This document shows, in pieces, positions 15,796 to 46,255 of a stretch of DNA of 64,000 bases. The notes under the pieces were generated by a model, which made no database searches, was not told where the DNA came from, and was given only the letters and a program-made list of their open reading frames with translations. The position numbers and the translations under genes are program-made. Every line of letters starts with the position of its first letter. Within the stretch, counting starts at the first letter, position 1. The stretch is taken from contig JAQTMY010000001.1 in the NCBI GenBank assembly GCA_028714095.1, positions 185,787 to 249,786 of the forward strand, written 5' to 3'. The stretch comes from Candidatus Nanoarchaeia archaeon. GTDB taxonomy: Archaea; Nanobdellota; Nanobdellia; SCGC-AAA011-G17; JACPNG01.

Positions 15796-18009
15796 TTATC
15801 CTGCAACAATATTAATTCCTCCAGCCAGTATTGTAAAGACAATTATCCCAACTAATGAGATTATAACATAAAGTCCAACACCTATCAGCATATTTCTGCT
15901 CATGCTGTGTTGTTCACTTAACTTGTCAACCCCTTTCTCGATAGAATTGCTTAATATTGTTAAAACATAAACCATCTCAACAACAAATAATCCAACAACA
16001 AGCTGGAAATAGAAACTTGGAATAACGTTTGTTATGTTAAGTATGTCTGCCATCCCAGCTAACCCGCTAACTTCCTGATCAGCAACTTGGGTTCCAGCAG
16101 CCAAAGTCCCGCTTAGTTTATTTATTATTGTTGTAACCATTGTTGCAACCCCAACCACAATTCCTGCAATAACTGGAGTTAAAAAAGTAATTTGGCTTTT
16201 CATGCTTGATATAATATCAGACAATAAATCTTTTAGTCTGTTATTTACTTTTTCAATTCTGTCAACGTATTGGCTTATGCTTATTAAACTCTTGGCAACA
16301 ATTTTTGGACCTTTTCTTGCTCCTTCAATTAAGACCATCATGCTGCTTTGAATCAATCCAGAAGGATATCTTAACATAGCGCCATATTGTTTATGGAAAA
16401 TTGCATCTTTGATTCCCATTCCAAGTTTTCTTATGTTTAGTGCAACTAATTTGAAAAAATCTCCGGTCCTTGTTCCAGCAAGATTATTTGCAACTTTTTC
16501 AAAAGCTAACTCTGCTGGCAATCCATCCTCGATTGAATTTCCAAGCTGGAATAAACTCCCTGAAAATTCCTGTTCAAGAGTCTCAGTCTCTTTTTTTATT
16601 TTCATTAATTTCTTTGTTATTGTCTTGTAATAGAACCATAGCCCGATTGCAATTCCTAGGGGAATTAGCAAACTTAACAACAAAGCAACTAAACCATAAG
16701 GCCCTTTGCATGTTGTGGCTGAACCATAGGTACTGCATTTATAATCTAAAATTCCAACAACAAATGCACCCTTGCCTATCACTTTGCTATCCAAATCTGG
16801 ACTTGTGTAATGCAATATTATTGGCAAAAACCCAATCAAAACAAAAATCCCGATTATAAAAAACGTGATTGTTTTAGGATCAACATAAATCGGTTTATCT
16901 ACACTCCCAAGATTTAATTTCTGATAAATTCTAAGATTTGGATTCTGTTTTAAAATATCTGTATTTGTTTGTCCTGTCGGTCTTCTAGACATTAGATTAA
17001 TTCCTACAAAGAATACGATAACAGGCAGTAAAATATTATAAAATATCATTAGGTGATACCATTTCAATGCTCCCTGCAAGAATGCAGCAACTAAAGGTAA
17101 TACAACTAAACCCAGTATTGGAAGAATAATCCCCAGCATGTGCAGCATTGTAATTGGAGATTTAAGGTTCTGGGCAAAGCTCAGCATCCTGTTATAGCTT
17201 CCCTCAAGTATAACTTCCAGGGATTTGTCCAGTAACTCAAGTCTTCTCTCCTCGCTGGATTCATATAAACTTGATTCAATTAAATGAAAGCTCTGGACAA
17301 ATTCAAGATTATGTTCTTTCCAGCTTTCAAGATAAGAATCCAGACTTTCCTTAATGTTAGAATAATTCCCGGATTCAACGTCCCAGAATATTTTTCTTAA
17401 GTCAAGAGATAAAGGATATCCTACATGCTGTCCTGCAAACTTGATTGCATGTTCTAGATTAGAAGTATGTCTCATATACATAACAACATACAAAATACAT
17501 AAAACCATTTGATTGCCTGCTTCAATTCTCCATTTATTGGCTAAATAATGGGGAAAACCTGCAGCAGGTTTAATTAAAAAAGCTCCAATAATCATCAAAA
17601 CAAACGGGAAAAAAATTTTTAGTTTTGCAGTGTCTGCTCCGCCAGAAACTATTATATCAAAAATAAATGGAAATATTGCAATAACTAAAGCAAGAAATAT
17701 TATAAATAATCCTGCAAAAACCCCAAAACTATATGCCTCAGACGGAGTTATTGTTAAATGTGCAGCATTGATGCTCTCCTGTAATTTTTTTCTTTCCTCT
17801 TCTTTTGGATCTACTTTTATTATTCTTCCAATTTTTTTGCAGGTCTTTTCATAAAATGTTTCAGTTTTTCCTAAGGTTTCTTCCTTAAATATTTCATATT
17901 CTTTTGAAAAAGCCTGGTTATCAGGAAGATCATTTAATTCAAACTCTATGCTCCCCTTCAATCTCTTGTCATATTTCTCTAAAATTTCCTTAATCTTATC
18001 CTGATCCAT
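15796..18009 (-). CDS. Type IV pilus/archaellum-type membrane platform protein (TadC/FlaJ-like, T2SS-F domains). The start is probably the ATG at 18009, giving a TAATG overlap with the ATPase stop; the ORF track extends to 18057.
   Basis: Polytopic membrane protein about 740 aa long; its position is immediately downstream of, and overlapping, the VirB11/FlaI-type ATPase. Confidence 0.65.
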   Translation of the reverse strand: MDQDKIKEILEKYDKRLKGSIEFELNDLPDNQAFSKEYEIFKEETLGKTETFYEKTCKKIGRIIKVDPKEEERKKLQESINAAHLTITPSEAYSFGVFAGLFIIFLALVIAIFPFIFDIIVSGGADTAKLKIFFPFVLMIIGAFLIKPAAGFPHYLANKWRIEAGNQMVLCILYVVMYMRHTSNLEHAIKFAGQHVGYPLSLDLRKIFWDVESGNYSNIKESLDSYLESWKEHNLEFVQSFHLIESSLYESSEERRLELLDKSLEVILEGSYNRMLSFAQNLKSPITMLHMLGIILPILGLVVLPLVAAFLQGALKWYHLMIFYNILLPVIVFFVGINLMSRRPTGQTNTDILKQNPNLRIYQKLNLGSVDKPIYVDPKTITFFIIGIFVLIGFLPIILHYTSPDLDSKVIGKGAFVVGILDYKCSTYGSATTCKGPYGLVALLLSLLIPLGIAIGLWFYYKTITKKLMKIKKETETLEQEFSGSLFQLGNSIEDGLPAELAFEKVANNLAGTRTGDFFKLVALNIRKLGMGIKDAIFHKQYGAMLRYPSGLIQSSMMVLIEGARKGPKIVAKSLISISQYVDRIEKVNNRLKDLLSDIISSMKSQITFLTPVIAGIVVGVATMVTTIINKLSGTLAAGTQVADQEVSGLAGMADILNITNVIPSFYFQLVVGLFVVEMVYVLTILSNSIEKGVDKLSEQHSMSRNMLIGVGLYVIISLVGIIVFTILAGGINIVAG

Positions 18010-20294
18010 TATAATTCTTTCCTCTCTTTGACCTTTCTCTTCAGCCATTCTTCCCATTCAAAGAATATTCTTCTGCTGTCTAATTTTCCCGCCTCATCCA
18101 ATACCTTGTCCGAAATTCTGTGGAACATATCATTTGAATTTATTGTAAATTTAGCCTCAAGTAAATCATGATCCTTTGTTTCTTTTGCATACCTGACTAA
18201 TGTTTCCTTCATTTTCGCTCTTAACAATATATTATCCCATACCAAATCCCAGTTACCAACCCACTCTCTTACGTTTCCTGCTATACCTTTAATAATTTCA
18301 GAATCTCCGTTTAATAAATCAGCAGTAGGTTCTAAACTATCTGTACCTGGATTATATTTCATTAATTCAACAAAACCTTTTTCAGTGATTGGATCTCTTT
18401 CCCAGTGTTTCCTGACCTCTGTGATGCTTATCACCCTTCTCCATTTATGCAATCCATCAGGACTCTTGACAGGATTTGAAATAATAATGATGTCAGTAGC
18501 CTTGAAACTTGTAGCAGGAACTTTTAAGTCATTTACAACTCTGTCAAATACACCATAAGCACTGTCTCCATGTATTGTTCCGGCGACAACATTTGCCAAA
18601 GCACCAATTCTCATGGCCTCATACAATGCAAAAGCCTCGCTTGATCTTATTTCTCCAACTATTAAACTGGAGTCTCCCATTCTTAGCGTAGTCCTTATTC
18701 CTTCATCAGCAGCTATTTCAGATCCGCCTTTAGTCAAGGCACTTCTTACTTTCATTGGCTGTATGTTATATCCTAATTTTCTTAATGATTCGGTTGGTAA
18801 TTCTAAAGTATCCTCAACAGTAATAATCCTGTATTTTCTCATAACCTCGACAAGAGCAGACCCAAGCAAGGAAGTCTTACCCGAACTTCTTGTTCCTGCA
18901 AATAATAATGTTCTCGCTCCATCAATAAGGAAAGAGATTAATCCTGCTGCCAGGGGGTTTAACATTCTGTTTTCAATAAATAAAGCCAAGGTCCATGGTT
19001 TATCTCTGTGTCTTCTGAAGGCATAAGCTAATCCAAACGGATTTAATGGTTTTTGCACAATTGCTACTCTTGATCTTGAATCCGGGAGTATTAATTCTGT
19101 ATCCAAAATAGGATTTGCCTCGTCCAATGGCCTGCCGCTTAAGATTCTGAACTTGGATGCCCAGCCCTCAGCATCCTCCCGGCTTGGAATAATATTTGTA
19201 ACGCATTCATCAAAATCCTGATGCACTAAAAATACAGGATTTTCCCCAATCGGGCTGTTTATTGTAACATCCTGCACTTTCTCGTCGCTGAGCAAGATTT
19301 CTATTAGGCCAAATCCAACTGTATATCTTACTAAAATATTTGCCAAATCAATTAATTCATTATAACTTACCTCAATTCCTTTTGTTTGGGATAACTCCTG
19401 TAATAAATCCCTTCCAATATTAAAAAAAGTGATTCTCATTTTTTCAGGATCTAAGAATTCTTCTTCCCTTGGTTTGTGTTCAGCCAAGACCATCCTCGCT
19501 AGATCAAGTAGTTCATACTTATCTTCTGTTAATTTAAATTCAGGAGGGGTTAAATGATACAAATATTTAATGTCTTTTTCAATTCTATAGATATTAACTT
19601 CTGCGCCATTGACTGTATAAACATCAAGCTGTTCAGAATCCAGAGGAATCCTTGCCATTAACTGGGTAAAAATAAAATCAGGGGATATTGCAGGTCTGAA
19701 GATTAGGGAATATAACATCCTATCCCCGATATGATACCCAGCCAAATTATTTTTAACAAGGTTAATCAACTTTGTATTTTCTATCATGTTTTTCATTTCT
19801 TCTAATAATTCAATAAATTTTTTCTGGCCCTCAATTGCATTAAGAGGAATCCTGCTTGTTCTTACATTTTCCTCCCTTATTGCCCTGATTAATTCAACAT
19901 AAGCTCCAATAGGATCGCTCTTGATAAGATTAAGAATAATATATTGTACTCTTTGTCTCCATCCCTCAATAAAGGGATTTACTCCCGGATAAACTAAAAC
20001 ATTAGTCAAACTAATTATATTTTTCTGCCTGACCCATCTCTTGTATAAATTAGAGATTTCTATCAACATTTGTGTTTGATCAAAATCATAACTATAGATT
20101 CTCCTTTGAACAAAAATAATCCTTGAAACATTGGGAACTTCCACCAAAAAGTCAATCGTTCTTGACATAGTCAGGGCATTACCCTCGATAGAAGGGGAAA
20201 ATGCCCAGTTCTCAGCGTTTACTCTAAGCGCTTGCTCCTGGCCTTCTTTTACAACTTCATAGCCTCTTTCTTTGGCAGAAACCATAATCACCAC
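18009..20294 (-). CDS. Type II/IV secretion-family ATPase (FlaI/TadA/VirB11-like), with long N- and C-terminal extensions
   Basis: Walker A AGTRSSGKTSLL; TVEDTLEL (the Asp box region); and a His-box region (GTIHGDSA). Confidence 0.8.
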   Translation of the reverse strand: MVIMVSAKERGYEVVKEGQEQALRVNAENWAFSPSIEGNALTMSRTIDFLVEVPNVSRIIFVQRRIYSYDFDQTQMLIEISNLYKRWVRQKNIISLTNVLVYPGVNPFIEGWRQRVQYIILNLIKSDPIGAYVELIRAIREENVRTSRIPLNAIEGQKKFIELLEEMKNMIENTKLINLVKNNLAGYHIGDRMLYSLIFRPAISPDFIFTQLMARIPLDSEQLDVYTVNGAEVNIYRIEKDIKYLYHLTPPEFKLTEDKYELLDLARMVLAEHKPREEEFLDPEKMRITFFNIGRDLLQELSQTKGIEVSYNELIDLANILVRYTVGFGLIEILLSDEKVQDVTINSPIGENPVFLVHQDFDECVTNIIPSREDAEGWASKFRILSGRPLDEANPILDTELILPDSRSRVAIVQKPLNPFGLAYAFRRHRDKPWTLALFIENRMLNPLAAGLISFLIDGARTLLFAGTRSSGKTSLLGSALVEVMRKYRIITVEDTLELPTESLRKLGYNIQPMKVRSALTKGGSEIAADEGIRTTLRMGDSSLIVGEIRSSEAFALYEAMRIGALANVVAGTIHGDSAYGVFDRVVNDLKVPATSFKATDIIIISNPVKSPDGLHKWRRVISITEVRKHWERDPITEKGFVELMKYNPGTDSLEPTADLLNGDSEIIKGIAGNVREWVGNWDLVWDNILLRAKMKETLVRYAKETKDHDLLEAKFTINSNDMFHRISDKVLDEAGKLDSRRIFFEWEEWLKRKVKERKEL

Positions 20295-22537: not shown

Positions 22538-22564
22538 AAAATTAAGACTCTCTGCCAGACCCCA

Positions 22565-23104
22565 TCACCCCTCTTTTTTTTCCTTTTTACCTCCAGTAAC
22601 TACCAGTAAAATTGTTCCAACAATGATTAATACTAAAACAATCCCCATTATAAGTGTATCGGCCCACTTATACATAATAAATCCTACAAGGGGGGTTAGC
22701 CATCCAAATCCGTGAAGGAATATTGCAATGATTGCAATGAATGCAATAACCATTAAAAAAGTTCTCCATCCCTTGTGTTCATCAAACTTGAATTCTGTAT
22801 CACCAAAGGCAGTTCCAGCCAATAGCATGAACATTAAGATAGCCAATAATACTAAAACAACCCAAGGCAATGAGATCTTGAACGCATCAGTGATTTGTTT
22901 TGTAGCTACAACAAACAAGGCAACAACAAAGGCCAACATAGCATTAACATTTGTTTTTGGCTTTTCGTCTTTGGTTTTTCCAAGTATCTTTGTTTTCTCC
23001 AAAACAGCATAAACAATTACAAAAGTAAGTAAGAATGGCAGTACTACATCAAAAAAGCCTAAGTCTTCTAGAAAGTATATCGACTTGGCTAACGGAGATA
23101 CCAT
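22565..23104 (-). CDS. Four-TM membrane protein, tandem paralog 1 of 3
   Basis: VVLPFLLTFVIVYAVLEKTKILGK plus ISLPWVVLVLL. Confidence 0.5.
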   Translation of the reverse strand: MVSPLAKSIYFLEDLGFFDVVLPFLLTFVIVYAVLEKTKILGKTKDEKPKTNVNAMLAFVVALFVVATKQITDAFKISLPWVVLVLLAILMFMLLAGTAFGDTEFKFDEHKGWRTFLMVIAFIAIIAIFLHGFGWLTPLVGFIMYKWADTLIMGIVLVLIIVGTILLVVTGGKKEKKEG

Positions 23105-34340: not shown

Positions 34341-34520
34341 GCCAATCCCTCAAATAAAGAATAATATAAATATATCGGAAAGCTTTTTAAAGTTAATATA
34401 ACTCAAAAAGATTGTAAATTTAACCATAGGCTTTTTTCTAGCCAAGATTCAAAAAAGAGGCAATAGTTGCTTCTATGAATTCTAATTGGATTTGGTTGGA
34501 GAAGCCGGAAAAGGAGAAAA

Positions 34521-35066
34521 ATGGATAAAATAAGAGAAGAAACAAAAGAATTTGAAACAACCCAGCTTATCCAAACGTTCGTCAAAAAATCAGTCTCTCT
34601 CGAAACCATGCTTAAAGCTCTATTTTGGAACATCAAACGTGAAAGCCTAATCCAATCACTTATGGATTTCCTATCATTCTTTCTCACCAACAATAACCTT
34701 GATTTACCTCCCAAAGAGGTCAGTCCTTCATGGAAAACTTGGAAAGAAAGGTTGGAAAAAACAAAAATCAAAAAAGCAGATGAAGCTATGATCTTCATTT
34801 ACTTTGGTGAAGTTGCAGGGCAACTACTCATATGCCATAAGAATAAAAAGCAAAAAAACGGACAACCTCGGGGGTGCGAACTTTTAGGATTTGATAATAT
34901 CTTAGGAATTGAGAATATAAGCCTCTTCCTTAATGATGACGTCCTCCAATGGACCTCTTCTTTAATCCCCCTCAAGGATTTTATGGACACCGCAATACCG
35001 GTCTATAAAAAATACAAGGAAGAATGGAAACGGAAGACGGAAGAAGATTCAGTATCAAAAAATTAA
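34521..35066 (+). CDS. Hypothetical protein
   Basis: ORF only, followed by an AGGCCC/GGGCCT hairpin plus T-run. Confidence 0.3.
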   Translation: MDKIREETKEFETTQLIQTFVKKSVSLETMLKALFWNIKRESLIQSLMDFLSFFLTNNNLDLPPKEVSPSWKTWKERLEKTKIKKADEAMIFIYFGEVAGQLLICHKNKKQKNGQPRGCELLGFDNILGIENISLFLNDDVLQWTSSLIPLKDFMDTAIPVYKKYKEEWKRKTEEDSVSKN

Positions 35067-35199: not shown

Positions 35200-36390
35200 A
35201 TGTTAGTGGAAATCCTAATCGCAATTCTTATAGGAATAGTCTGCGGAATAATCTCAGGCATAACTCCAGGAATTCATATTAATCTAATTTCAGTTTTAAT
35301 CTTAACTTTTTCTCCATTCCTATTGATTTATTTTTCTCCATTGGCTTTAGCTTCATTGATAATTGCAATGGGCATTATCCATACATTCCTTGACGCAATT
35401 CCATCTATTTTTCTCGGAGCACCAACAGAGGAAACAGCCATCTCAATTCTTCCAGGCCATAGAATGTTATTGGAAGGAAAAGGTTATGAAGCAGTAATGT
35501 TAACAATATTCGGAACAGTAACTGCATTAATAATTTCTTTTTTGTTTATTCCATTGGCTTTAGTCTTATTCCCCTTAGTCTATGAAAAAATAAAAATTTA
35601 CATAGGAATTATCCTTTTGTTTATAATTGGCTTTTTGTTGTTAAAGGAAAAATCAAAACTATTTTCATTGATGATTTTTCTCATGGCCGGAGTTTTAGGA
35701 ATAGCAACATTAAACATGGGGATTAAAAATGTCTTATTCCCTTTGCTTTCAGGACTATTCGGAATCTCAACTTTAATCATAAGTTTAAAAGACAAGCCAG
35801 TAATACCAAAACAAAAGATAACATTTCCAAAATTAGACAAGTCAAGTTACAAGGTTTCATTTATTTCGTTCATTACAGGGGCAATGTGTTCTTTTATGCC
35901 AGGTCTTGGTCCAGCCCAGGGAGCTGTATTAGGCTCCCAATTTATAAAAAAAATCCAGCAAAAAGATTTTTTGATTTTGGTTGGGGGGCTAAGCGCAGTT
36001 AATTTTTTCCTAAGCCTAATCTCCTTATACAAATTGGAAAAAGCAAGAAATGGGGCAGTAGCAATAGTCCTTAAGTTGGTAAATACAATAAATCTTAAAC
36101 AGTTTCTTATCCTTGTCTCAGTAACATTAATTGTTTTGCCAATAGCCGTTCTTCTCTCAGTCAAACTTTCAAAAGCTTTTTCTTTTTTAATAACAAAAGT
36201 AAACTATCAAAAATTATGTCTCTCAATAATATTATTTATCTTAATCTTAACAATCTTTTTATGTGGGATTCCTGGTTTTCTCATTCTTTTATTGTCAACT
36301 TTGATAGGAGTAATCCCCCAGTTAGCAAATACCCCAAAAAATCATTTGATGGGTTGCCTTATTTTGCCTGTTTTGTTTTATTTCCTTTGA
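35200..36390 (+). CDS. TctA-like/DUF112 membrane protein
   Basis: Two repeats carrying the G-x-x-PG-(I/L)-G motif (GITPGIHIN and MPGLGPAQGA) in a polytopic protein. Confidence 0.5.
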   Translation: MLVEILIAILIGIVCGIISGITPGIHINLISVLILTFSPFLLIYFSPLALASLIIAMGIIHTFLDAIPSIFLGAPTEETAISILPGHRMLLEGKGYEAVMLTIFGTVTALIISFLFIPLALVLFPLVYEKIKIYIGIILLFIIGFLLLKEKSKLFSLMIFLMAGVLGIATLNMGIKNVLFPLLSGLFGISTLIISLKDKPVIPKQKITFPKLDKSSYKVSFISFITGAMCSFMPGLGPAQGAVLGSQFIKKIQQKDFLILVGGLSAVNFFLSLISLYKLEKARNGAVAIVLKLVNTINLKQFLILVSVTLIVLPIAVLLSVKLSKAFSFLITKVNYQKLCLSIILFILILTIFLCGIPGFLILLLSTLIGVIPQLANTPKNHLMGCLILPVLFYFL

Positions 36391-39300
36391 TTATTTTAAA
36401 AATCCCAAGAAATTTCTTGCCATCCAAAGAATTAAATGAATCTTTAATGTCTTCTTTTTTCCATCTAGCCTTCAAAAGATTTGCCTCAATGACATTATCC
36501 TTAATCCCTTTTGATCTTGCATTTTTGATATAATTGATTACCTTGCTTAAATCTTTTTTAGGTTTCTCCTTAACAATCTTTTTCCCTTTCTTTAATTTAA
36601 AATAATAAAATCCTGCAACAGCAAAGATTATTAAGAAAATTATTATAAATACAAGCCAAGGGAACCCAGAACTTTCTTCTTCAGTATAATTGACTGTAGG
36701 TTCATAAATATTTTCCTCTTCTTCTGTGTTTTCATCTCCATAAAATTCACTTCTGCTGAGGTCTGTCCCGCACGTATTATCTTCCTTGCATATTTTACCT
36801 GAGGGGCATCCGCAGTCTTTGCAATTGAAAGCTAATATTCCTTTCTCACATTTCATGGGTTTTGATGAAGAACATATCCCGTTCTTTGTTCCATCTCTGC
36901 ATGTACTGCTACTTGAAGAACTTAATGTAGTATCACAATCATCGTCATCTTCATCAGTATCTCCATCACAGTCATTGTCTAAGTCATCACTGCATGAACT
37001 CTCTTCATCCTCCTCATAATCATCTCCGTAATCACACTCATCCCATTCTAAATCCTCATTGCATTCTTGTGTTGAATCCTCACAGACTCCTTCCTGTAAA
37101 CTACAATCCTGTTCATCCCCTTCTTCATCACATTCACATCCTTCATCAATGCTCCCATCGCAGTCATTGTCCAGGTCATCACATAAAGTTTCACTTGATT
37201 CATAATTTATAGAACTATTATAAACACAAGTACTCCAGGAATTACTTACACAAGTTGAATTTATTTTAGCGCAAACTCCAGATCCACAAACTTTAGTATC
37301 TCCATTAGAACAAATAGTTGTTGTTGAAGTAGTATCCATCTCATAGCAAGGACTGTCGCTAAAAGTATTAAACATACTACAGGCCTTATATAATTTGGTT
37401 GAGTCTTCTGCTTTGGATTCAGGATCAAATACCAATAAAGTAGATTTGCCGTCATTGGATTCTGTACTAATCCCGCTGCCAACAGTACTTAAATAATATA
37501 ATTTTCCTTCATATTGAACACTTGCCCCATTTCCAATCGGGAATTCTGGCTGATTAATTGTCTTAACATCAATCCATTTCTTTTGATCAAAATCATAATA
37601 TTCAACATTAGTAGTTCCTTTTTTATTGTTTAGAGTAGCTCCTCCGATAACATAAACTTTATTCCCCTTAACAACTATCCCAGGATCCAAACCATGCTCA
37701 TAAATACTATCCTGCAATTGGGTCCACGAATTTGTTATAGGATCATACATATGGAATAATTTTTGGTTTGAAGCATAATTTCTCCCATTAATATTAAATA
37801 TCCTCCCTCCAACAACATAAACTTTATCATTATAGCTAAACATACCAGGACTTTTTCTTGGGTTAGGAGCAGATTGTAATTTAGCTCTTCCTCCATTTGA
37901 AGCAAGAGTTTGAAATTTTGGGGTATATGGTTTTTCAGTATAGTATGTTATCTTTGAAGTATCAATAACAAATAAATCAGAAAGCCAATTTACTTTTAAT
38001 CCAAGTTCATCATAATTTTTAAAATCAAGTTCATCGTTCCCATACATTGCATTTGCAATCCCCCCAAAAACATAAATTTTATTTCCAATAACTGTACTTC
38101 CGTGGTACATGGTATTTTGTTGACCATAATTTACCCCTCTTCCGCAGTTTTCAGTTCTGCAATCAACTCCAATCGATGCAACTCTCCCCCACCAGTCTAT
38201 TTCAGGATTAAATGAATAAATTACAAATAAAGTATGGGCATTTACAGCAGGCAATCCAAACCCTGCAATAAGATATAGCCAATCCCCAACATTTTCAAGA
38301 CTATTCCCAACAAGGGGTTTATTACCTTCTTCATTTGCTCCCCCTCCTGTTTGAGAAGGGTCATACTTAACAACTAACCAATTTGTATAATCTGGATCTG
38401 GGGCCACCCATTTCTTTTCAGGTTCGTTATGTGTTTCCCATAATCCTGTAGTAAAATTATATTTCTCCATCTGCCCCACAATTGTAAAAGTAGATTTAGG
38501 TTTGGGAGTTGTACCCCATGCAACAAGCCAGCAGTATTTATCTATCCCCCACCATTTCTCTCCTAAATTAGTTCTTCCCGCAATCGCATATAATCCTCCC
38601 TCGTTAATTGCAGAACCTCCTTCTATATGTGGGAACATTGAATCAGGTAATCTTGTCCAGACCCCTTGACAATTTGTACATGTGGTACTGCACTTTTGAT
38701 ACTCATTCCATATACATTCTGCAGTGCAATCACTTCCAGAACAATCTTGGTCAATACCATCCCCGCAAATATCCTTAGATCCTTTTTTCACTAATGGATT
38801 TTTATCATCACAATCCTCACTTGAACAAATCCCATCACCGTCTTCATCAGAACCCTTTCCTGCCATTGTACATCTTCCGGGGATAAGAACCCAGGAAGGA
38901 TAACTTTCCTCACTTTCCTTACAAGGTTCATAATTATTAGGATCATAAACATTATCTACCGAGATAGGAAATTGTGTAACAATATTCTTTCCAGCACATC
39001 CATAACTCTCTCCTTCCTTAATCCCCCAGCAACCATTATCATCATTGTCGATCATCCCATCACCGTCATTGTCAATACCATCAGAACAAGCAGGTTTCTT
39101 TAGCTCACTAATTTCCTTCTCATCAAACCATTCTTCCCATGGTTGGGTAGATTTAGATTGTTTCCATTTAGCATAAGCACATTTGCAGGCCACATCTTCT
39201 TTACCTGGTTGTAAATCTATCTTTCCATCATTATCATTGTCGATGCCATCATAACAACTTCCAGTACCAATATTCTCAGAATTAAAATAAGTATAACACG

Positions 39301-40399
39301 AGCAGTCAGACGCTTTAGTTATTGTTTTTTCAGTTGCTCCGTCAAAGCATAAGGATTTGCTGTTTCCATCCTTGTCATATTGATTTACATAAAGGCATTT
39401 ATCATAAACAACTCCTTCAAGTATCAATAAATTATAAAGACTGTATTTGAAATTCAATGGTTTTGTATTACAACTTAAATCATTAAATCCTCGGATAAAA
39501 TTGGAGGATATTTTATTGTCAGTTTCAATCTTGGAAAATAATTTTAAATCAATACAACCATACCTGAGTTTTGCATTATCCCCCAATTCATTGCCGTTGT
39601 GAGCAACAACATTAAATAAATAACCTCCCCCTAAATCTCCAAAACTAAATTGCCCGTTAAAATCTGCTCCAGTCTCTAATTTTAATCTAGAACTTAAAAC
39701 ATCTCCATAGAAATATTCAAACTCGTTTACTCCAGAAGTTTTAAGATTAACTGAAGCATCTGTGATATCAAGCCTTTTGGCATTTTCATTTATAAAATTA
39801 TAAAATCCTTCCAGAACACCAATACCATAATTATAATCATCCTCACATTTTTTCTTTGCGGTTTCATCAGCTGCTTTTGTCAAACAATCTTTCTTTGTTT
39901 TTTCTAAGTTTGTTCTTCCTTCTGAAAAATGATTTAAGTTAGAGCTTTCAAAAGAAATTTTTCCTTCATATTTATTGCACACTAATAAAACTTCATTATA
40001 ACTCTGATAAACACTATCTCCTATCTTAACAGGTTCAAATAAAGTATTGTCTCCTTTGTAGACAAAAGCACAATCTCCTTCTTTAACCGCTTGGGAATAT
40101 GTTATTTTTGTAGCAATTTCATTCTCCCAAACATTTCCGGTTCCAGGAGTCTTGCTTACACATTTATTACTACTACAAGTTTGCAAGGCCCCACAGCAAA
40201 TATCATTGCAACAAGTTCCTGTACAGCAATCAACAGAACTGCAGCTTTGCCCGACATGAGCACAACTTCCTGGAGTGGAAGGATTATCTGGATCATTATA
40301 GCTTGGATCTTTGCTTATTGCAATTACAAAAACTGAAAGTAATATTGTTAATAACATAACCAGAATAATTTTATTTTTAGATTGCATAATTAAACTCAT
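36359..40399 (-). CDS. Giant (1346 aa) Cys-rich surface protein: signal peptide, Kelch-type beta-propeller repeats, acidic Cys-Asp repeats (C-x-D-x-D-N-D-C-D-G), a C-terminal TM anchor and a Lys-rich tail
   Basis: Propeller repeats: VYVVGGR...YDPITNSW and VYVIGGAT...YDFDQKKW. Acidic repeats: DDLDNDCDGSIDEGC and SDDLDNDCDGDTDEDDDDC. C-terminal TM FPWLVFIIIFLIIFAVAGFYYF, followed by KLKKGKK. Confidence 0.7.
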   Translation of the reverse strand: MSLIMQSKNKIILVMLLTILLSVFVIAISKDPSYNDPDNPSTPGSCAHVGQSCSSVDCCTGTCCNDICCGALQTCSSNKCVSKTPGTGNVWENEIATKITYSQAVKEGDCAFVYKGDNTLFEPVKIGDSVYQSYNEVLLVCNKYEGKISFESSNLNHFSEGRTNLEKTKKDCLTKAADETAKKKCEDDYNYGIGVLEGFYNFINENAKRLDITDASVNLKTSGVNEFEYFYGDVLSSRLKLETGADFNGQFSFGDLGGGYLFNVVAHNGNELGDNAKLRYGCIDLKLFSKIETDNKISSNFIRGFNDLSCNTKPLNFKYSLYNLLILEGVVYDKCLYVNQYDKDGNSKSLCFDGATEKTITKASDCSCYTYFNSENIGTGSCYDGIDNDNDGKIDLQPGKEDVACKCAYAKWKQSKSTQPWEEWFDEKEISELKKPACSDGIDNDGDGMIDNDDNGCWGIKEGESYGCAGKNIVTQFPISVDNVYDPNNYEPCKESEESYPSWVLIPGRCTMAGKGSDEDGDGICSSEDCDDKNPLVKKGSKDICGDGIDQDCSGSDCTAECIWNEYQKCSTTCTNCQGVWTRLPDSMFPHIEGGSAINEGGLYAIAGRTNLGEKWWGIDKYCWLVAWGTTPKPKSTFTIVGQMEKYNFTTGLWETHNEPEKKWVAPDPDYTNWLVVKYDPSQTGGGANEEGNKPLVGNSLENVGDWLYLIAGFGLPAVNAHTLFVIYSFNPEIDWWGRVASIGVDCRTENCGRGVNYGQQNTMYHGSTVIGNKIYVFGGIANAMYGNDELDFKNYDELGLKVNWLSDLFVIDTSKITYYTEKPYTPKFQTLASNGGRAKLQSAPNPRKSPGMFSYNDKVYVVGGRIFNINGRNYASNQKLFHMYDPITNSWTQLQDSIYEHGLDPGIVVKGNKVYVIGGATLNNKKGTTNVEYYDFDQKKWIDVKTINQPEFPIGNGASVQYEGKLYYLSTVGSGISTESNDGKSTLLVFDPESKAEDSTKLYKACSMFNTFSDSPCYEMDTTSTTTICSNGDTKVCGSGVCAKINSTCVSNSWSTCVYNSSINYESSETLCDDLDNDCDGSIDEGCECDEEGDEQDCSLQEGVCEDSTQECNEDLEWDECDYGDDYEEDEESSCSDDLDNDCDGDTDEDDDDCDTTLSSSSSSTCRDGTKNGICSSSKPMKCEKGILAFNCKDCGCPSGKICKEDNTCGTDLSRSEFYGDENTEEEENIYEPTVNYTEEESSGFPWLVFIIIFLIIFAVAGFYYFKLKKGKKIVKEKPKKDLSKVINYIKNARSKGIKDNVIEANLLKARWKKEDIKDSFNSLDGKKFLGIFKIIKGNKTKQAK

Positions 40400-41087
40400 A
40401 ACCTCCTGCAGTCACCTTGCACATTCTGTCTCTATCAACTAACATACATCTGTCAGGTCCATTTTCTATTCCAGTATCTAACCCCCATTCAACTCCAGAA
40501 TCCAAAAGAGCCCTGACCTGCCCAACCGCTTTGTTGTATAAATTTAAAAATGGTATGTCTGATTTATACTCAAATTGATTATAATTAACCTCTTCATTTC
40601 CTTTTTTGATTTTTAATGGAAAGTCTACCTTCAATAAAGTGCTATCCTCATAATAATTAACGTTAACAAAAATATCTCCGTAGTTTATAGTATACCCTTC
40701 AGTTTTAAATTCCTGAAAATAATTTACACAATTCAGAAAATTATCCCTAAAATAAAGATTAATTTCATCAATGATTTTTCCATCAGAAGGAGGTCCTCCA
40801 CCATAAGAACTATAAAACTTGGCAATGTTCAAAGAACCAACTTTAACAACATCCTGATGTTCCTTGTAGTTCCCTCCTTGTTTTGCAATTAATACCAATG
40901 AATCTTCTCCAACCTGTTCAACACAATCCTGCGTAAAATCATAGATTGCCTCTGTATCGCTTGAAATCTTTTCTCCCAATGTAGTTTCATTTCCAGAACT
41001 TCTTCCAACAATCAGGAATAAGGCAATGACAACAACTATAACAATCCCAATAATAATAAATAAAGTAACCTGCCCCCTTTTCCCCAT
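40377..41087 (-). CDS. Type IV pilin-like protein (class III signal peptide), co-transcribed with the giant surface protein
   Basis: N-terminus MGKRGQVTLFIIIGIVIVVVIALFLIV matches the archaeal prepilin (K/R)G-Q-hydrophobic pattern. It overlaps the start of the giant gene. Confidence 0.5.
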   Translation of the reverse strand: MGKRGQVTLFIIIGIVIVVVIALFLIVGRSSGNETTLGEKISSDTEAIYDFTQDCVEQVGEDSLVLIAKQGGNYKEHQDVVKVGSLNIAKFYSSYGGGPPSDGKIIDEINLYFRDNFLNCVNYFQEFKTEGYTINYGDIFVNVNYYEDSTLLKVDFPLKIKKGNEEVNYNQFEYKSDIPFLNLYNKAVGQVRALLDSGVEWGLDTGIENGPDRCMLVDRDRMCKVTAGGYEFNYAI

Positions 41088-41118
41088 AATATTTAAAACC
41101 TATTTATCCTATATAAAA

Positions 41119-44100
41119 TTAACTAAACCACCTGTTTAATCCTTCTTGCTTTTCAGACTCTTTTCCAAAAACACTTTCTATTCTTTTCTGTAATAATTCT
41201 AAAGTTTGTTGTAAATAAGGAGGCAAATCATATTTCTTGGCTAAATCCAGACTTGGTTCAAGATATTTAATAATAGAACCTTCAGCAATTGTAAATATAA
41301 TTCTTCCCCCACAGCTTAAACACTTCCCCATCAATGGAGGTCTTCTGTATTTTTCATTGCAGTCAACGCATCTGAATTGCTGCATTGAAAATTTTCTTAG
41401 GTTACCTTTAATATCTCTTAGAAAATGCCTTTCAATTATTAATCTTGCAACATCCCCCTCATCCACAGCTCTTATTTTTTCAGCCAAATCCATTTGTCCC
41501 TTTACCTTATCTTGCATGGAAGGAATTGTTTTGTATGCACTGCATAAAGTCCCTTGGTTTATGTCAAAAGGATCATGGGTAAATCCCATCCCCTCATACT
41601 GTTTCTCAGTTCCTAATCTTCCTCTATAAGTCTCAATCATTATCTCCCATGGGAACTTAAACTGCTCTGCAGATTCATAAAATTCTAAAGGATATTTCCA
41701 TGCAGTATCCATGTTGAATACCATATCATCAACTTCTGCAGGGATTAATTTAAAGTTTAAAACTAAAGGAGCATCCTGCCTTGCCCCTCTATGCCCGGGT
41801 AAATATAATTTTGAAAAATTAAGCAGAGCATCAAGGAGTAATACAACACAGGCTTCATCTCCATCCGCATCCCTCCTCATCATACAATGCAATAATGGAT
41901 GTGCATAAAATCCCTGGGTTTTTGAAAAGCCTATTACTCTGCATAAGTTTCCTGCAGAGGTGTGTGGACTTAAAGCAACCAACAAACTTCCTGTAACATC
42001 TTCTTCGCTTTTAAAATTATAATACCTTGATAATCCATATAAATTTTCTAATAGATCATCAACAAATCTTCCAACCCTGAATAAGATTTTATCAGCCCCT
42101 TCTTCTAAAGATCCCTCGCATGAAGGCAGGATAATATCTTGACACTTTAGTTCTATAACCTGATTTTCATCTACAATATCCCTTCCATAAATATCTTTAT
42201 CATACCCCAACTGTTTTATTTTTTTAATATTAGTTCCTATCTCCTTAAGCTTAAAATGAGTTAAAGCAGTCTCAGTCATATCATATCTTACAGTTCCATC
42301 CTTATTTACATGAATATTATATATGCTTCTCAGAATCCCCTTAACTAAATTCTCAGGGATTTTATCCTCACTCCAGACCCCCTTAACCCCTTTGATTAAA
42401 TCCTTATATTCTGTAATGTTCAGCTTTGCTAAGGCATTCCTGAAATAATGATTAACATCAACTCCGCGGCTTGTATAAGTTCTGCTTAGATGAGTCACTT
42501 CTTGTTCCTTCCCCTCCTTATCCTTTACCTTCTTGGTTTTTTCACATTTGGTTTCAAGAATTTTATCATCATCATAACAATAATATCTCTTTTGTGTTCT
42601 TATCCCACAAACTTCGCAGGTAGGATAAATTGTTTCCTTGTTGCATTTTATACAGTAAAAGTAAGGCCATTCAGCATTAACCTTTCCTTTTTCTAATGCA
42701 CTTTGCAGATTTCTCATTTTTCCGCCTTCCTCTCCTACTGGAAATAAGACATGGGGGTTTCCTGTTAATTTCCTTATCTTTGCTTTTTCAGGTCTTCCCA
42801 TCCTTGCACCGATGAAATGACCGTTCTTATCCTTAATATCAAAATTAAACATATTAAGAATCTTCAAACAATCTTCTTTGTTAAAATCCAGTTTTGAAAG
42901 GTCTTTAAAAATATAATTTAATACAAAACAATCCCCTCCGGAAATATAAACTTGATTCTCTATTACCCTATGCGGTACCCCTAATAATTCTAATGTCCTT
43001 TTAGGATCTTCTCCCTCAATAACTTCTTTGATGTCATATTCTAAAGGGAGAATAATCTCATTCTCTGTCTTAGTTGCATGCTTAATCCATTCAACAAAAT
43101 TTTCCAGTTGTTTTTTGGAAATATTTTTCCAATGGTATGTATATCTTGGATGCAGTGGAATTTTATATAAGGTGCTCATTTTTATTGCATCTTCTCCAGA
43201 AATTTGTTTGTACGGATTTTTTATTAGTTCATTAACAGCTTCATTTTTATTTTCTAATTTTTCAAGAATTGCCCTGTGCCATTCCTCATTATACCCGCAT
43301 GGAATTAATCTGTGCCCCCTGTCAAGAAAGTCTCCATAATTAATTAAAATATCTCCTAAAAATAAAATTTCTTCTATCTTATTTTTAAATAATAATGCTT
43401 TTTCCTCTGTGTCAACTAAAACAACATCCCCATTCTTTAATTTTACAATTGGCCCTTCAAGAGTATCACATACAGCCAAGACTGTAGACTTCCCAGGTCT
43501 CTCCGTTCTTAGCTGTGTTCCAACAGCTAAATAGTCATTTAATATTCTCATAGTTGCAGGATGTACCGCATCAGAACTGAATCCTGAATTTCTCGCTCTT
43601 CCATATCTTAATCTGAATCCTCCATTCCTTAATGGATAAGTTAGTATTGGCCTACCAGCAACTAAATCTTTTATAAAAGTATAATCTGGTTTAACTAACT
43701 GGTCAGAAGCAGTTTTTCCTTTTGATTTTGCTTTTATTTTTTTCTGTAATTCAACAAACTCCTCAAGGAAATCCATGCTGGTTATTCCAAAATCCTGTTT
43801 CCATTTTGAAAATTTGGAAAAGAACTTGGCAGCTTTTTGTGTTAAGCCCTCACCTATAACTAAAGCTATCCCATTCCTTAATCTGTTTGTTTCAATTCTT
43901 TCAAGGTTTTTATAATTGGAAACCTCAATTTTTTCAGAGGGTTCTCCATCAATCTGCACAGGTAAATGTTTTATCATAAACTCTATTTCAGGTTCTGAGG
44001 GAAAATACTGTAGATTAGTTATTCTCTCATGGAAATCTATCACTTCTGTAATCATTCTCTTGACTTCTTCTTCAGTGGGATCATAAACCTCATAACCCAT

Positions 44101-44628
44101 CTTTTGTCTTACATAATCTGCCAAAGCAACAAAAACACATGTAGCAGTTGTTCCAGCACTTCTTATTGGTCCTGAAAAAAATAGGGAAAAATAAGGCTTG
44201 CCATCTTTTCTTTTTTTCAAGGCTAGTTTAGTAAATCCCTCTAAGGGACTAGCTACAACCCCATTAGTAATATAAGCCAATCCAACTCTTAACCCTACTT
44301 CCATGGCCAACCTCTCGTCGCTAAACTTACAGAATTTTTGTTGTGCAACTTCCAATGCGACGGTAAATGCAATTCTCCAGTCCTGGCTTCCATATTGTTT
44401 TTCTAATTCCTCTATTCTTTGCAGAATTCCTGAACCTTTAACCTGGGGGGCAACAGTTCCAATTAACCCTTCTACCCTTGCAGCCATGTTTTTAGCTAGG
44501 TTTATTTCAACTTCATCAGCAGGATCATATCCTTTTTTTCTTGCCTTAGTTGCTAAATCATATAATATATCTAATTCATTCTTTAATTTATCAAAATACA
44601 TTTCCATATTTTCACTTGCCTGATTCAT
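41119..44628 (-). CDS. polD2: DNA polymerase II (PolD) large subunit DP2
   Basis: Length about 1170 aa with conserved DP2 blocks and C-terminal Cys clusters (CVDCNEKY...CLSCGG). It is immediately downstream of DP1 and cdc6. Confidence 0.9.
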   Translation of the reverse strand: MNQASENMEMYFDKLKNELDILYDLATKARKKGYDPADEVEINLAKNMAARVEGLIGTVAPQVKGSGILQRIEELEKQYGSQDWRIAFTVALEVAQQKFCKFSDERLAMEVGLRVGLAYITNGVVASPLEGFTKLALKKRKDGKPYFSLFFSGPIRSAGTTATCVFVALADYVRQKMGYEVYDPTEEEVKRMITEVIDFHERITNLQYFPSEPEIEFMIKHLPVQIDGEPSEKIEVSNYKNLERIETNRLRNGIALVIGEGLTQKAAKFFSKFSKWKQDFGITSMDFLEEFVELQKKIKAKSKGKTASDQLVKPDYTFIKDLVAGRPILTYPLRNGGFRLRYGRARNSGFSSDAVHPATMRILNDYLAVGTQLRTERPGKSTVLAVCDTLEGPIVKLKNGDVVLVDTEEKALLFKNKIEEILFLGDILINYGDFLDRGHRLIPCGYNEEWHRAILEKLENKNEAVNELIKNPYKQISGEDAIKMSTLYKIPLHPRYTYHWKNISKKQLENFVEWIKHATKTENEIILPLEYDIKEVIEGEDPKRTLELLGVPHRVIENQVYISGGDCFVLNYIFKDLSKLDFNKEDCLKILNMFNFDIKDKNGHFIGARMGRPEKAKIRKLTGNPHVLFPVGEEGGKMRNLQSALEKGKVNAEWPYFYCIKCNKETIYPTCEVCGIRTQKRYYCYDDDKILETKCEKTKKVKDKEGKEQEVTHLSRTYTSRGVDVNHYFRNALAKLNITEYKDLIKGVKGVWSEDKIPENLVKGILRSIYNIHVNKDGTVRYDMTETALTHFKLKEIGTNIKKIKQLGYDKDIYGRDIVDENQVIELKCQDIILPSCEGSLEEGADKILFRVGRFVDDLLENLYGLSRYYNFKSEEDVTGSLLVALSPHTSAGNLCRVIGFSKTQGFYAHPLLHCMMRRDADGDEACVVLLLDALLNFSKLYLPGHRGARQDAPLVLNFKLIPAEVDDMVFNMDTAWKYPLEFYESAEQFKFPWEIMIETYRGRLGTEKQYEGMGFTHDPFDINQGTLCSAYKTIPSMQDKVKGQMDLAEKIRAVDEGDVARLIIERHFLRDIKGNLRKFSMQQFRCVDCNEKYRRPPLMGKCLSCGGRIIFTIAEGSIIKYLEPSLDLAKKYDLPPYLQQTLELLQKRIESVFGKESEKQEGLNRWFS

Positions 44629-46255
44629 CTTCCCAAAAATTAATTATGCTTACCTCCCTTGTTTTAAGATTAATAACAGGAACTCTTCCAGGTTCTGCAA
44701 TATGTCCTACCTTGTCCTGGAAGGGGGTCTGTTTCTGCCATGCAGATGAAGCAATCATCGTGACATTATTATAATTTAAAACCGCCGCCCTATGGATATG
44801 CCCCGAAATAAAAAAATCAGGAACCTTCTCAATGACTAATGGATCTAAATCTTTGTATGGAACATACAATGTAGAGGTATGGCTTGGAGCCAAATGTCTT
44901 TTTTGGAGTAATAATTTCATAACTAAGTCTGTTCTTTCAGATATATTTGGTTTCATCAACCTTATTCTCTCAACCTTGTCAGCATAATAATCATAACTAT
45001 ATCCATGATATAATAAAAAATCAAATCCCATGAAGTGTTCAGAAGAATGTATATTAACAACAGAAGGGTTGCTTACAATAAAAACATTTTCCATGTTGTA
45101 GAGATCTTCAGCATAATGTCTTGGTTGTGGAGGTTGTGGCTCCCCAATCCTTAAAGCATCGTGATTCCCAGAAGTAATTATTATCTTGATATCCTTCCTT
45201 ATCTTGTTTAATAATTCCGCAACCCTTTTGTACTGTTCCCTTATATCCCTTAACGTTAATTCCTCTTCCTGGCCTGGATAAATTCCAAGTCCGTCAACAA
45301 TATCCCCCATAACAAAAAGATATTTTATCTTGCTTGCAATCCTCTTTTGTTTTATATTTCCATACTCCCCATTGAGCCATGAAACAAAATTAAGAAATTC
45401 TTTTTCCATAAATAAATTGCTTCCCACATGCATATCTCCAGTTATAACTGCATAAACCTCATCTTCAGATTTCTTAAATTCCATTGTGTGAGGCACATCA
45501 GGAAAAAATATATCAGAAACAAAAACAACCTTATCCCCCATTGTTCCATTAATTCCAATGACCTCATCCAGGACAATATCCTGTGCTTTGATGAAGGATT
45601 CGTTTGTTTTTGTGATAAGTATATTTATATTACCTGTATTGTCCTCCATTGCAATCTTAAGATGCCCCGCCTTGGTTGTTTGTATATCATTGACTAATCC
45701 AATTAAAGCAACAGGTTCTCTTAATGATTTATTCAAGGTCCTGTTAATTGAGATAACATTCTGTAGTTCATTTCTTGACTGCAACATCTCTTTTATTTTA
45801 TTATACCTTGCTCTAAAATACAAAACAAAATCCTGAACCTCTCTTTTACTTGCTTCTTCCATATAGGATTTCAGGACAACAACACTGCTCCCAATTTTTT
45901 CTTTCTCAATCTCATCCTTTTCAGGTTCCTTGATTTCTTCTAGAACCTTATCCATTACCTTCTTGGTTTTTTCAGATAGATTATAATTAAAAATATCCAT
46001 AAATAATTTGTAATCTTCTTCACTCCTTCCTTTTTCATGCATTGTTTTTGCTCTTTCAAACTCCTTCCAGCTCACATCCATTAAAACCCCTTTTTGGATT
46101 AGAGGTAGAATCTCCTTATTCAGAACCAGAACTCCCTTATCAGAATAAATATTGATTATCTCAGTTAAATTTTCATTTAATCCCTCAAGGACATCTTTGA
46201 GTTCTGGGCTGACTAATATTCCTTTTTCTAAAAAATAATTAATTGTATTTTTCAT
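44612..46255 (-). CDS. polD1: DNA polymerase II (PolD) small subunit DP1 (calcineurin-like phosphoesterase)
   Basis: GDMHVGS and GNHD phosphoesterase motifs; an OB-domain region lies upstream. Confidence 0.85.
   Translation of the reverse strand: MKNTINYFLEKGILVSPELKDVLEGLNENLTEIINIYSDKGVLVLNKEILPLIQKGVLMDVSWKEFERAKTMHEKGRSEEDYKLFMDIFNYNLSEKTKKVMDKVLEEIKEPEKDEIEKEKIGSSVVVLKSYMEEASKREVQDFVLYFRARYNKIKEMLQSRNELQNVISINRTLNKSLREPVALIGLVNDIQTTKAGHLKIAMEDNTGNINILITKTNESFIKAQDIVLDEVIGINGTMGDKVVFVSDIFFPDVPHTMEFKKSEDEVYAVITGDMHVGSNLFMEKEFLNFVSWLNGEYGNIKQKRIASKIKYLFVMGDIVDGLGIYPGQEEELTLRDIREQYKRVAELLNKIRKDIKIIITSGNHDALRIGEPQPPQPRHYAEDLYNMENVFIVSNPSVVNIHSSEHFMGFDFLLYHGYSYDYYADKVERIRLMKPNISERTDLVMKLLLQKRHLAPSHTSTLYVPYKDLDPLVIEKVPDFFISGHIHRAAVLNYNNVTMIASSAWQKQTPFQDKVGHIAEPGRVPVINLKTREVSIINFWEDESGK

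Follow-up and report, generated by a model that had tools for sequence, protein, structure and literature searches.

A small protein with a prepilin-like N-terminus and its giant Kelch-propeller neighbour: one member of a widespread two-gene cassette class in DPANN archaea

Host recognition and attachment by the ultra-small DPANN archaea are a long-standing open question, and most large secreted proteins of these organisms are unannotated. Here we consider two overlapping genes, encoding a small protein of 236 aa and a giant surface protein of 1346 aa, in a 64-kb stretch of DNA (the window, meaning the whole stretch that was analysed) that belongs to a 509-kb contig of about 33% GC from a metagenome-assembled genome (MAG) of Candidatus Nanoarchaeia (DPANN). 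Several described systems come close to this pair. Archaeal proteins with class III (prepilin-type) signals are processed by the A24 peptidases PibD, FlaK and EppA, and the Sulfolobus bindosome carries such signals on proteins that are not filament subunits. In the S-layer of the Sulfolobales, the large exported protein SlaA is held by a small membrane-anchored partner encoded adjacent to it, SlaB, whose gene follows that of SlaA and whose anchor is a C-terminal helix. Class III signals, pilin-plus-adhesin loci and C-terminally anchored, Cys-rich, S-layer-like proteins in type IV pilus loci are established, and stand-alone pilin genes are common in archaea (PMC4858521). Giant DPANN surface proteins are also already known, among them the SPEARE proteins of Nanohaloarchaeota, which are 3-8 kaa (thousand amino acids) long and have protease, toxin and restriction-enzyme domains (PMC6642349).

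The pair in the window is one ordinary member of a widespread class of DPANN two-gene cassettes, in which a gene of what we term the 'KRGQ' family precedes the gene of a large secreted protein; the interesting result is this cassette class itself rather than the window's particular pair. Our favoured reading, to which we assign a probability of roughly 0.55, is that the small protein serves as a dedicated surface partner that anchors or presents the large exoprotein. We found neither the family nor the stand-alone cassette described in Pfam-A, NCBIfam or the open-access literature searched. An earlier interpretation made from the letters alone (the sequence-only reading) had proposed an adhesion module not described before; for the pairing, no earlier account came to light, while class III signals and pilin-adhesin loci are known.

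The cassette shares features with each of the described systems and departs from all of them. Class 3 signals of M. maripaludis have leaders of 5-13 residues ending in Gly and a conserved +1 Gln, while +5 Glu occurs in some lineages and is absent from Sulfolobus and Haloferax pilins (PMC3875500). The 'KRGQ' proteins resemble the EppA substrates of this species, which are A24-processed class III proteins, in the charged leader of this kind, the +1 Gln and the hydrophobic stretch right after the cleavage site (PMC3875500). They differ at +5, which is Phe (93%) instead of Glu, in that the family gives no match to PF04021/DUF361, and in their far larger mature proteins (240-1200 aa) with an alpha/beta domain and a 1:1 pairing with a large secreted protein. 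With minor pilins plus PilY1, and with the PilY-like adhesins of archaeal type IV filament loci, the cassette has in common a prepilin-type small protein beside a large surface protein (PMC4858521; 10.64898/2026.04.22.720090), as well as a beta-propeller in the large protein, probable Ca2+-binding acidic motifs and a proposed adhesion role. Unlike PilY1 modules, the cassette of the window has neither a PilY1 nor a DUF2341 domain, its propeller is of the Kelch type and its giant has its own transmembrane (TM) anchor; cassettes stand apart from ATPase and platform genes, provide one small protein per large one instead of 3-5 minor pilins, and have partners that fall into about 35 largely unrelated clusters. 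SlaA/SlaB follow the same display logic, with no similarity in sequence or fold; in the cassettes, however, it is the first gene that provides the anchor, at the N-terminus of its product, and a genome has many different cassettes.

The gene pair and its counterparts in other DPANN genomes

The two genes lie on the minus strand:

40377..41087 (-): small-protein gene; open reading frame (ORF) of 236 aa, member of the large uncharacterised DPANN 'KRGQ' family
36359..40399 (-): giant surface-protein gene; ORF of 1346 aa from its first ATG, 1342 aa from 40387

Both ORFs and the overlap of the giant's start with the small gene had been predicted from the letters and were borne out, at the same coordinates, by our ORF check. 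The overlap amounts to 23 nt from the first ATG of the giant, or to 11 nt from its fifth codon (40387), where NCBI places the start of the 1342-aa product under the name 'MopE-related protein'; the 11-nt overlap is identical in relative L001. The 236-aa ORF has been kept in related genomes, where it is present in frame with 51-52% identity (alignment A1) and where the gene order PolD-DP2, small, giant, TctA is retained, the TctA-family transporter gene lying downstream of the giant in convergent orientation. No further 'KRGQ' member is encoded within the window.

A word-indexed search found only two relatives of the small protein, wrongly suggesting an orphan. The exhaustive profile search of a database of 1.84 billion cluster representatives returned 4,365 representatives at E<=1e-3, with 892 of them passing E<=1e-10; most representatives are 240-260 aa long and align from residue 1 to about residue 185; matches that carry a name are all 'hypothetical protein' from Nanoarchaeia, Pacearchaeota or Nanoarchaeota. 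We define the family by a 50-sequence alignment (A2), whose invariant columns are Q6, C55, G72 and C120. The window's protein matches the A2 hidden Markov model (HMM) with E=9.3e-70 and possesses all invariant residues; it shows the N-terminal K-[KR]-G-Q-[VI]-T-x-F, C55/C120, the QGG motif and a large Sec-exported protein encoded directly downstream. No Pfam or NCBIfam model matches it, the 50 members of A2 gave no Pfam-A or NCBIfam match beyond single-member noise, and nine extended variants of the family had no Pfam match over the curated cutoff. A viral or mobile-element origin of the family was considered and rejected, as no relatives of the small protein were found on IMG/VR contigs.

To what extent the pairing holds beyond the window was surveyed at 80 DPANN loci from GTDB species genomes with uniformly called ORFs; these loci were the top tblastn hits for a pattern-based scan rather than a random sample. 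Here, the next gene was on the same strand and encoded at least 500 aa for 71 of 96 family genes (74%), versus 72 of 963 other genes (7.5%; odds ratio 35, Fisher p=1e-48), and at least 1000 aa for 37 of the 96 versus 10 of the 963. The median length of the downstream gene product was 827.5 aa for family genes and 206 aa for others, and 73 of 84 same-strand pairs overlap or are separated by a gap of at most 30 nt. Distant family members, too, are encoded directly upstream of, and often overlapping with, a large protein without Pfam match. Several cassettes occur per genome, at some loci in tandem. The synteny in relatives and the enrichment across the 80 loci make the two genes a genuine conserved pair, as the sequence-only reading had assumed; its view that the pairing is unusual did not hold, since about three quarters of the surveyed family genes precede a large secreted protein.

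The partners have a Sec-type signal peptide nearly always, and most lack a strongly hydrophobic C-terminal segment and would therefore need something that holds them at the cell. They form about 35 clusters, most of which show no detectable similarity to one another, and their Cys content is bimodal, either low (0-13) or very high (20-74). Representatives of nine partner clusters had no Pfam match over the curated cutoff, the sole Pfam signal among them being a sub-threshold match of the L034 partner to Pur_ac_phosph_N. The Kelch/MopE-motif giant of the window constitutes a small lineage-specific partner cluster, for which we found no homology to the partner giants of other cassettes. The cassette is therefore defined by its small protein and not by its giant.

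Tandem arrangements of the type small-giant-small-large are found at L004 (5139-15389), L008 (5451-11247) and L009 (3412-11946). They are preceded by a tiny ORF (47-61 aa) resembling winged helix-turn-helix or ribbon-helix-helix proteins, possibly a dedicated regulator, and at L009 the two cassettes are separated by an inserted HepT/MNT toxin-antitoxin pair. Some 14 loci among the 80 (L015, L020, L028, L031, L038, L039, L046, L050, L058, L061, L069, L074, L077 and L087) stem from records titled 'Methanosarcinales archaeon', all others being DPANN; these titles are probably a naming artefact, and if real, the family would extend beyond DPANN.

The two proteins of a cassette also vary together. 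Small proteins of a given length class go with a given partner cluster; for example, variants of 616-690 aa always pair with cluster 1 (1575-2307 aa) and variants of 422-466 aa always with cluster 2 (717-812 aa). When only the first 200 residues of the small protein were compared, the nearest core-domain relative had a partner of the same cluster in 46 of 51 cases; shuffling the labels 2,000 times gave 3.5 cases on average and never more than 15. At two loci the two proteins are naturally fused (L028 9992-13651, 1219 aa; L069 9998-13294, 1098 aa). Both fusions begin with a complete family domain (residues 1 to about 247, E 1e-48 to 1e-52) and continue colinearly with most of a giant of the Cys-rich cluster 0; the giant part has no signal peptide of its own, which leaves the class III-type N-terminus as the sole signal for its export or anchoring. 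With just 27.6% identity over about 1,000 residues, the two fusions are considered old rather than assembly errors; their stability favours a permanent over a transient association. Compactness of DPANN genomes, where many unrelated genes overlap and where the Cdc6, PolD DP1 and DP2 genes upstream of the window's pair are packed equally tightly, might suggest that the adjacency is a by-product of gene density devoid of any functional link. We strongly disfavour this explanation and give it next to no credence, given the enrichment at p~1e-48 over the 80 loci, the co-diversification and the gene fusions.

Signals for transcription and translation are in line with the pair being a unit of its own:

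41110..41117 (-): TATA-like element TTTATATA, 23-30 nt upstream of the ATG of the small gene and directly after the PolD DP2 stop
40401..40406 (-): GGAGGT (Shine-Dalgarno-like), within the small gene's last codons, ahead of the giant's candidate ATGs at 40399 and 40387

The spacer between the DP2 stop and the ATG of the small gene measures 31 nt and holds TTTATATA at -30..-23; a TATA-like element occupies the same place in L001 and L003. Among 94 family genes, TATA-like 8-mers begin most often at -31..-29 (28 genes), and the share of genes with such an 8-mer within -36..-24 is 40% in the family and 22% outside it (Fisher p=1e-4). This suggests that the element is the small gene's own promoter, giving rise to a leaderless transcript of small plus giant gene, and the Shine-Dalgarno-like hexamer at the junction suggests translational coupling of the two. 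Cdc6/Orc1, PolD DP1 and PolD DP2 are encoded upstream of the small gene on the same strand, a position immediately downstream of replication genes that the sequence-only reading had counted as part of what makes the pairing unusual. Owing to the conserved TATA-like element between DP2 and the small gene, i.e., a putative own promoter, this neighbourhood appears incidental, and functional coupling to Cdc6/PolD was rejected on the same ground. Replication genes (PCNA and primase) also lie upstream of the cassettes at L008 (2776-5076) and L009 (563-2887), the window with Cdc6/PolD at 41119-47460 being a third such context; this recurrence may be a coincidence in compact genomes.

N-terminal signal of the small protein and the relation to type IV filaments

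Three parts can be delineated in the small protein:

41073..41087 (-): putative class III leader, residues 1-5 (MGKRG), positively charged and ending in Gly, with a predicted A24 cut before Q6
41007..41072 (-): hydrophobic helix, residues 6-27 (QVTLFIIIGIVIVVVIALFLIV), by hydropathy; membrane anchor or pilin-type alpha1-N
40380..40973 (-): predicted extracellular alpha/beta domain, residues 39-236, with the invariant C55 and C120 as a probable disulfide

The N-terminus, MGKRG/QVTLF with the slash marking the predicted cut, fits the FlaFind-type pattern, [KR][GA] and then a hydrophobic stretch. The window has no second credible match: the sole other one is an internal start in a 61-aa ORF that barely passes the hydrophobicity cutoff. 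The family-wide logo agrees: nearly all top matches start K-[KR]-G-Q-[VI]-T-x-F-I-I-x-G, with K(-3) at 88%, R/K(-2) at 90%, G(-1) at 82% (A 8%, S 7%), T/S(+3) at 94%, F(+5) at 93% and G/A(+9) at 94%, while the 100% for Q(+1) reflects its use as the anchoring residue of the logo. The median leader has 5 residues and the hydrophobic stretch a median of 22 (range 19-36). A plain membrane anchor would hardly conserve its sequence to this degree, and the near-invariant N-terminus fits the archaeal class III signature (PMC3875500), in keeping with what had been proposed for the window's protein. Likewise, the invariance of C55 and C120 leads us to consider the following domain as extracytoplasmic and oxidised.

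An AlphaFold2 model based on a 50-sequence alignment (predicted local distance difference test score, pLDDT, 89.6; predicted template modelling score, pTM, 0.78) superseded an earlier poor model from three sequences (pLDDT 62.4). It comprises a helix (4-30), a low-confidence linker (31-38), a second helix (39-69), a hairpin, a helix (102-129) that packs on a four-stranded sheet (133-176), a further helix (180-197) and a small C-terminal sheet. A Foldseek comparison with solved structures, known pilins included, gave nothing at E<=0.001 and weak similarity to pseudopilins only, and a sequence-profile search of the PDB with the small protein gave no match. Pilins are marked by an N-terminal helix that runs on into the domain and packs on a beta-sheet (bacteria) or by an Ig-like beta-sandwich (archaea). 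As the resemblance of the globular domain to pilins is weak, the term 'pilin-like', used in the sequence-only reading, is justified for the N-terminus only, and the cassettes lie away from type IV filament machinery. The C-terminal beta-subdomain (about 190-236) differs between cassettes; most family matches stop at about residue 185, and this subdomain is therefore the variable part and plausibly partner-specific.

The main rival to our favoured reading sees in the small protein a genuine type IV pilin, minor or at the tip, which after A24 cleavage would become part of a filament built by FlaI/FlaJ-type machinery and would carry the giant at the tip of this filament. The window does contain candidate components of such machinery:

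18009..20294 (-): T2SSE-type (FlaI/PilB-like) ATPase, PF00437 E=2.4e-14; 761 aa with a long N-terminal extension
15796..18057 (-): polytopic membrane protein, candidate FlaJ/TadC platform; 753 aa, gene overlapping the ATPase gene, no Pfam match

Together, the two genes (15796-20294) probably encode a FlaI/FlaJ-like type IV filament core, which may be related to the pair. Their location 16-20 kb from the pair speaks for a pilin, as do the class III signature with G(-1)/Q(+1), the distance of 42-56 residues between Q(+1) and the first Cys across the family, which resembles pilin alpha1, and the precedent of archaeal type IV filament loci that encode pilins plus large adhesins (PMC4858521; 10.64898/2026.04.22.720090). 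An analysis of linker length did not separate a pilin from a tethered ectodomain. Proteins of about 160 aa with KKGQ or KRGQ class III-type N-termini, which are encoded right after Cys-rich cluster-0 giants in some cassettes (L018 5812-6291, L026 8627-9112, L064 15258-15755), could be cited in favour of a pilin as well; they stand outside the small-protein family and are more pilin-sized. We nevertheless consider a pilin unlikely. A 1:1 association with partners from some 35 mostly unrelated clusters, in several cassettes per genome, is not how a shared set of minor pilins would look. A secretion ATPase was found within 10 kb on either side of the cassette at none of the 80 loci, an observation that is not decisive, as stand-alone pilin genes are common in archaea (PMC4858521). 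A homologue of the 753-aa membrane protein lies within 10 kb at just one of them (L046, E=1.6e-192), where it is divergent to and adjoins the family gene. Moreover, the model has a low-confidence break (residues 31-38) between helix and domain, its fold similarity to pilins is weak, a size of 240-1200 aa, as in this family, is large for an archaeal pilin, and the giant of the window is held in its own cell's membrane by a C-terminal TM helix and has no PilY1/DUF2341 domain. Near the ATPase locus (21456-23104, minus strand), three tandem polytopic membrane proteins of about 175-185 aa with similar N-termini (…VLLPFLL.F…) are encoded, for which there is no Pfam match.

Anatomy of the giant protein and further genes of the window

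The giant can be divided as follows:

40316..40399 (-): Sec-type signal peptide, residues 1-28, by hydropathy and sequence; no class III motif
40160..40267 (-): Cys cluster, residues 45-80, 10 Cys within 36 residues, by composition
39275..40147 (-): N-terminal region, residues 85-375 (about 290 residues), conserved only in two close relatives
38720..39274 (-): first acidic double-disulfide/PF11617-type block, residues 376-560, with C-x-D-G-I-D-N/Q-D at 382, 438 and 545
37400..38677 (-): Kelch beta-propeller, residues ~575-1000, by Pfam; probably six blades, counted by eye from the sequence
36770..37387 (-): second Cys-rich/acidic block, residues 1005-1210, with C-[DS]-D-L-D-N-D-C-D-G at 1073 and 1136
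36599..36664 (-): single C-terminal TM helix, residues ~1246-1267, by hydropathy
36362..36598 (-): Lys-rich, predicted cytoplasmic tail, residues 1268-1346, 26 K/R in 79 residues, conserved in L001 and L010

An acidic linker connects the second Cys-rich/acidic block to the TM helix, and the protein has 66 Cys in total (4.9%). All six parts listed in the sequence-only reading (signal peptide, Cys cluster, Kelch blades, acidic motifs, TM helix and Lys-rich tail) are present, yet their order needs amending, as acidic motifs stand before the propeller as well as after it (about 376-560 and 1005-1210), and the N-terminal region of about 290 residues had been overlooked. For this region (85-375) there is no Pfam or NCBIfam match, and no distant BLAST hits map there. 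The Kelch assignment was confirmed by significant HMM matches, namely Kelch_1 (E=3.3e-17, 62.1 bits, cutoff 20.1), Kelch_6 (E=3e-15, 56.0 bits, cutoff 25.3), Kelch_2 (E=1.1e-11, 44.5 bits, cutoff 21.3) and Kelch_KLHDC2 (57.1 bits, cutoff 50), with Kelch_4 and Kelch_3 likewise over their Pfam cutoffs; in a PDB sequence search, residues 843-971 matched the propellers of KLHL22, KLHL2 and Keap1 (E~4e-12). No PilY1/PilC C-terminal propeller domain and no DUF2341 were among the giant's Pfam matches at E<=1.

Full-length relatives of the giant are limited to two (P0005 and P0006, 56-65% identity). More distant matches touch only the two acidic-motif blocks and are other repeat-rich surface proteins with PKD, TIG or DUF11 domains. 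The acidic motif C-x-D-[GD]-x-D-[NQ]-D occurs five times in the giant (382, 438, 545, 1073 and 1136). PF11617 ('Cu-binding_MopE') also scored significantly, matching three stretches with 37.9 bits versus a cutoff of 27 and doing best at residues 529-556, and NF033662 (acid_disulf_rpt) matches residues 437-459 under its cutoff. On these grounds, and in view of the NCBI name 'MopE-related', the giant might be taken for a metal-acquisition protein, an analogue of the copper-binding MopE/CorA, with a small protein unrelated to adhesion. This appears very improbable to us. The PF11617 model has no specificity beyond the motif, and homology outside the short motif is needed for true MopE/CorA membership (PMC6189053), such similarity being absent from our Pfam, NCBIfam and PDB sequence searches; moreover, the same acidic motif is present in the Cys-rich region of teneurins (PMC3278476), and the distant matches are the aforementioned surface proteins. 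Since there is no similarity outside the motif, the giant should not be filed as a MopE family member or copper protein. Of the MopE-type metal binding that had been suggested, what remains is a PF11617 score over the cutoff that represents a short-motif match; the acidic double-disulfide motifs are probably Ca2+-binding. With other PF11617/NF033662 proteins (MopE, teneurin, repeat proteins of DPANN and of the candidate phyla radiation, CPR), the giant shares C-x-D-G-x-D-N-D-x-D-G, present five times, whereas the combination of Kelch propeller, N-terminal Cys knot and C-terminal anchor is confined to three closely related proteins.

Like the SPEARE proteins, the giant is mostly extracytoplasmic by prediction, with adhesion-type domains, a TM helix near the C-terminus, a cytoplasmic end and a proposed role toward the host (PMC6642349). 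There is no homology between the two, the giant has merely a 79-residue Lys-rich tail on the cytoplasmic side, and the passages on SPEARE proteins used here mention no prepilin-like partner gene. The tail matches that of L001 (phmmer E=4.9e-16) and contains a motif of about 45 residues (NYIKNARSKGIKDNVIEANLLKARWKKEDIKDSF) conserved in L001 and L010, which may be a small intracellular interaction module. A 240-aa protein of L012 (177-899; whole-protein E=5e-4) has up to three weak matches to this motif.

As to other genes of the window, the C-terminal part of a family B DNA polymerase is encoded at the window's edge (9-839, plus strand), and the PolD subunit genes (41119-46255, minus strand) sit in an overlapping Cdc6-DP1-DP2 string; the window thus encodes both PolB and PolD. 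Between the PfkB kinase and TctA genes (34403-35066), two overlapping ORFs on opposite strands (131 aa, minus; 181 aa, plus) have no Pfam match and are of unclear coding status; the syntenic region of L001 carries a NUDIX gene and a 238-aa gene instead.

Proposed surface display by the cassettes

The favoured reading, in which the small protein is a surface partner of the exoprotein, can be put as a sequence of steps. The first gene would give rise to a protein with the class III signal K-R-G/Q-V-T-L-F, a 22-residue helix, a polar linker and a disulfide-stabilised ectodomain. The overlapping second gene, probably translationally coupled to the first, would supply a large Sec-exported protein, in the window a type I membrane protein. 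After A24 processing, the conserved N-terminus and core domain would hold the small protein in the membrane, and its variable C-terminal subdomain would bind the cognate exoprotein and so tether or present it, allowing the cell to attach to hosts or substrates.

Several points weigh against this proposal. We infer cleavage, topology, surface location and partner binding, and the adhesive role is argued from domain analogy only. The 80 loci were annotated by a simple longest-ORF method, and the co-diversification can in part reflect vertical inheritance of a linked pair instead of physical co-evolution. The giant of the window has its own C-terminal TM anchor, meaning that tethering is not strictly needed here; the small protein may in this case organise or orient the giant. 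Finally, no A24 prepilin peptidase was detected in the window by Pfam (ORFs of at least 150 aa), by a GxGD motif scan or by tblastn with the L024 enzyme. One is encoded in the MAG of the pair's closest relative (L024 8374-9222, minus strand; PF01478 E=9.6e-12, with a weak Arc_PepC match). Its gene faces the partner gene of a paralogous cassette in convergent orientation at a distance of 2 nt, an arrangement seen at no other of the 80 loci.

Lack of a peptidase in the window would also suit a small protein that stays uncleaved, a type II signal-anchor acting as a transient chaperone or factor for export and maturation without being part of the final structure. A single N-terminal TM helix followed by an ectodomain, the tight translational coupling and the extreme Cys content of many partners (20-74 Cys) are compatible with such a role, which we nonetheless regard as quite unlikely: many other partners have 0-13 Cys, so that a disulfide-specific function would not be general, a mere anchor would hardly account for the near-invariant G(-1)/Q(+1)/F(+5), the stable natural fusions argue for permanent association, and there is no CxxC or catalytic-looking motif among the invariant columns.

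Beyond the single pair, we propose, more tentatively and with less than even confidence, that DPANN archaea of the Woese-, Pace- and Nanoarchaeia lineages have a modular surface-display system. A family of more than 4,000 clusters of A24-processed, prepilin-like adaptors would present giants, each paralogue its cognate one, and the cassettes, several per genome and with dozens of mostly unannotated partner clusters overall, would form an interaction surface that helps to set host or substrate specificity, the window's pair being one lineage-specific cassette. At the level of annotation, the 'MopE-related' label, which rests on the motif only, is corrected and the pair is set apart from the adjacent replication operon. 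Because its N-terminus is sharply conserved and about three quarters of its genes lie directly upstream of genes for large exported proteins, the small-protein family may serve as a genomic marker with which to find the repertoire of surface proteins in any DPANN genome. The family further predicts cleavage between G(-1) and Q(+1), 1:1 complexes with the partners and partner-specific C-terminal subdomains. If the adaptor model is true, archaeal prepilin-type signals would serve also for the display of giant proteins, beyond filaments and the bindosome.

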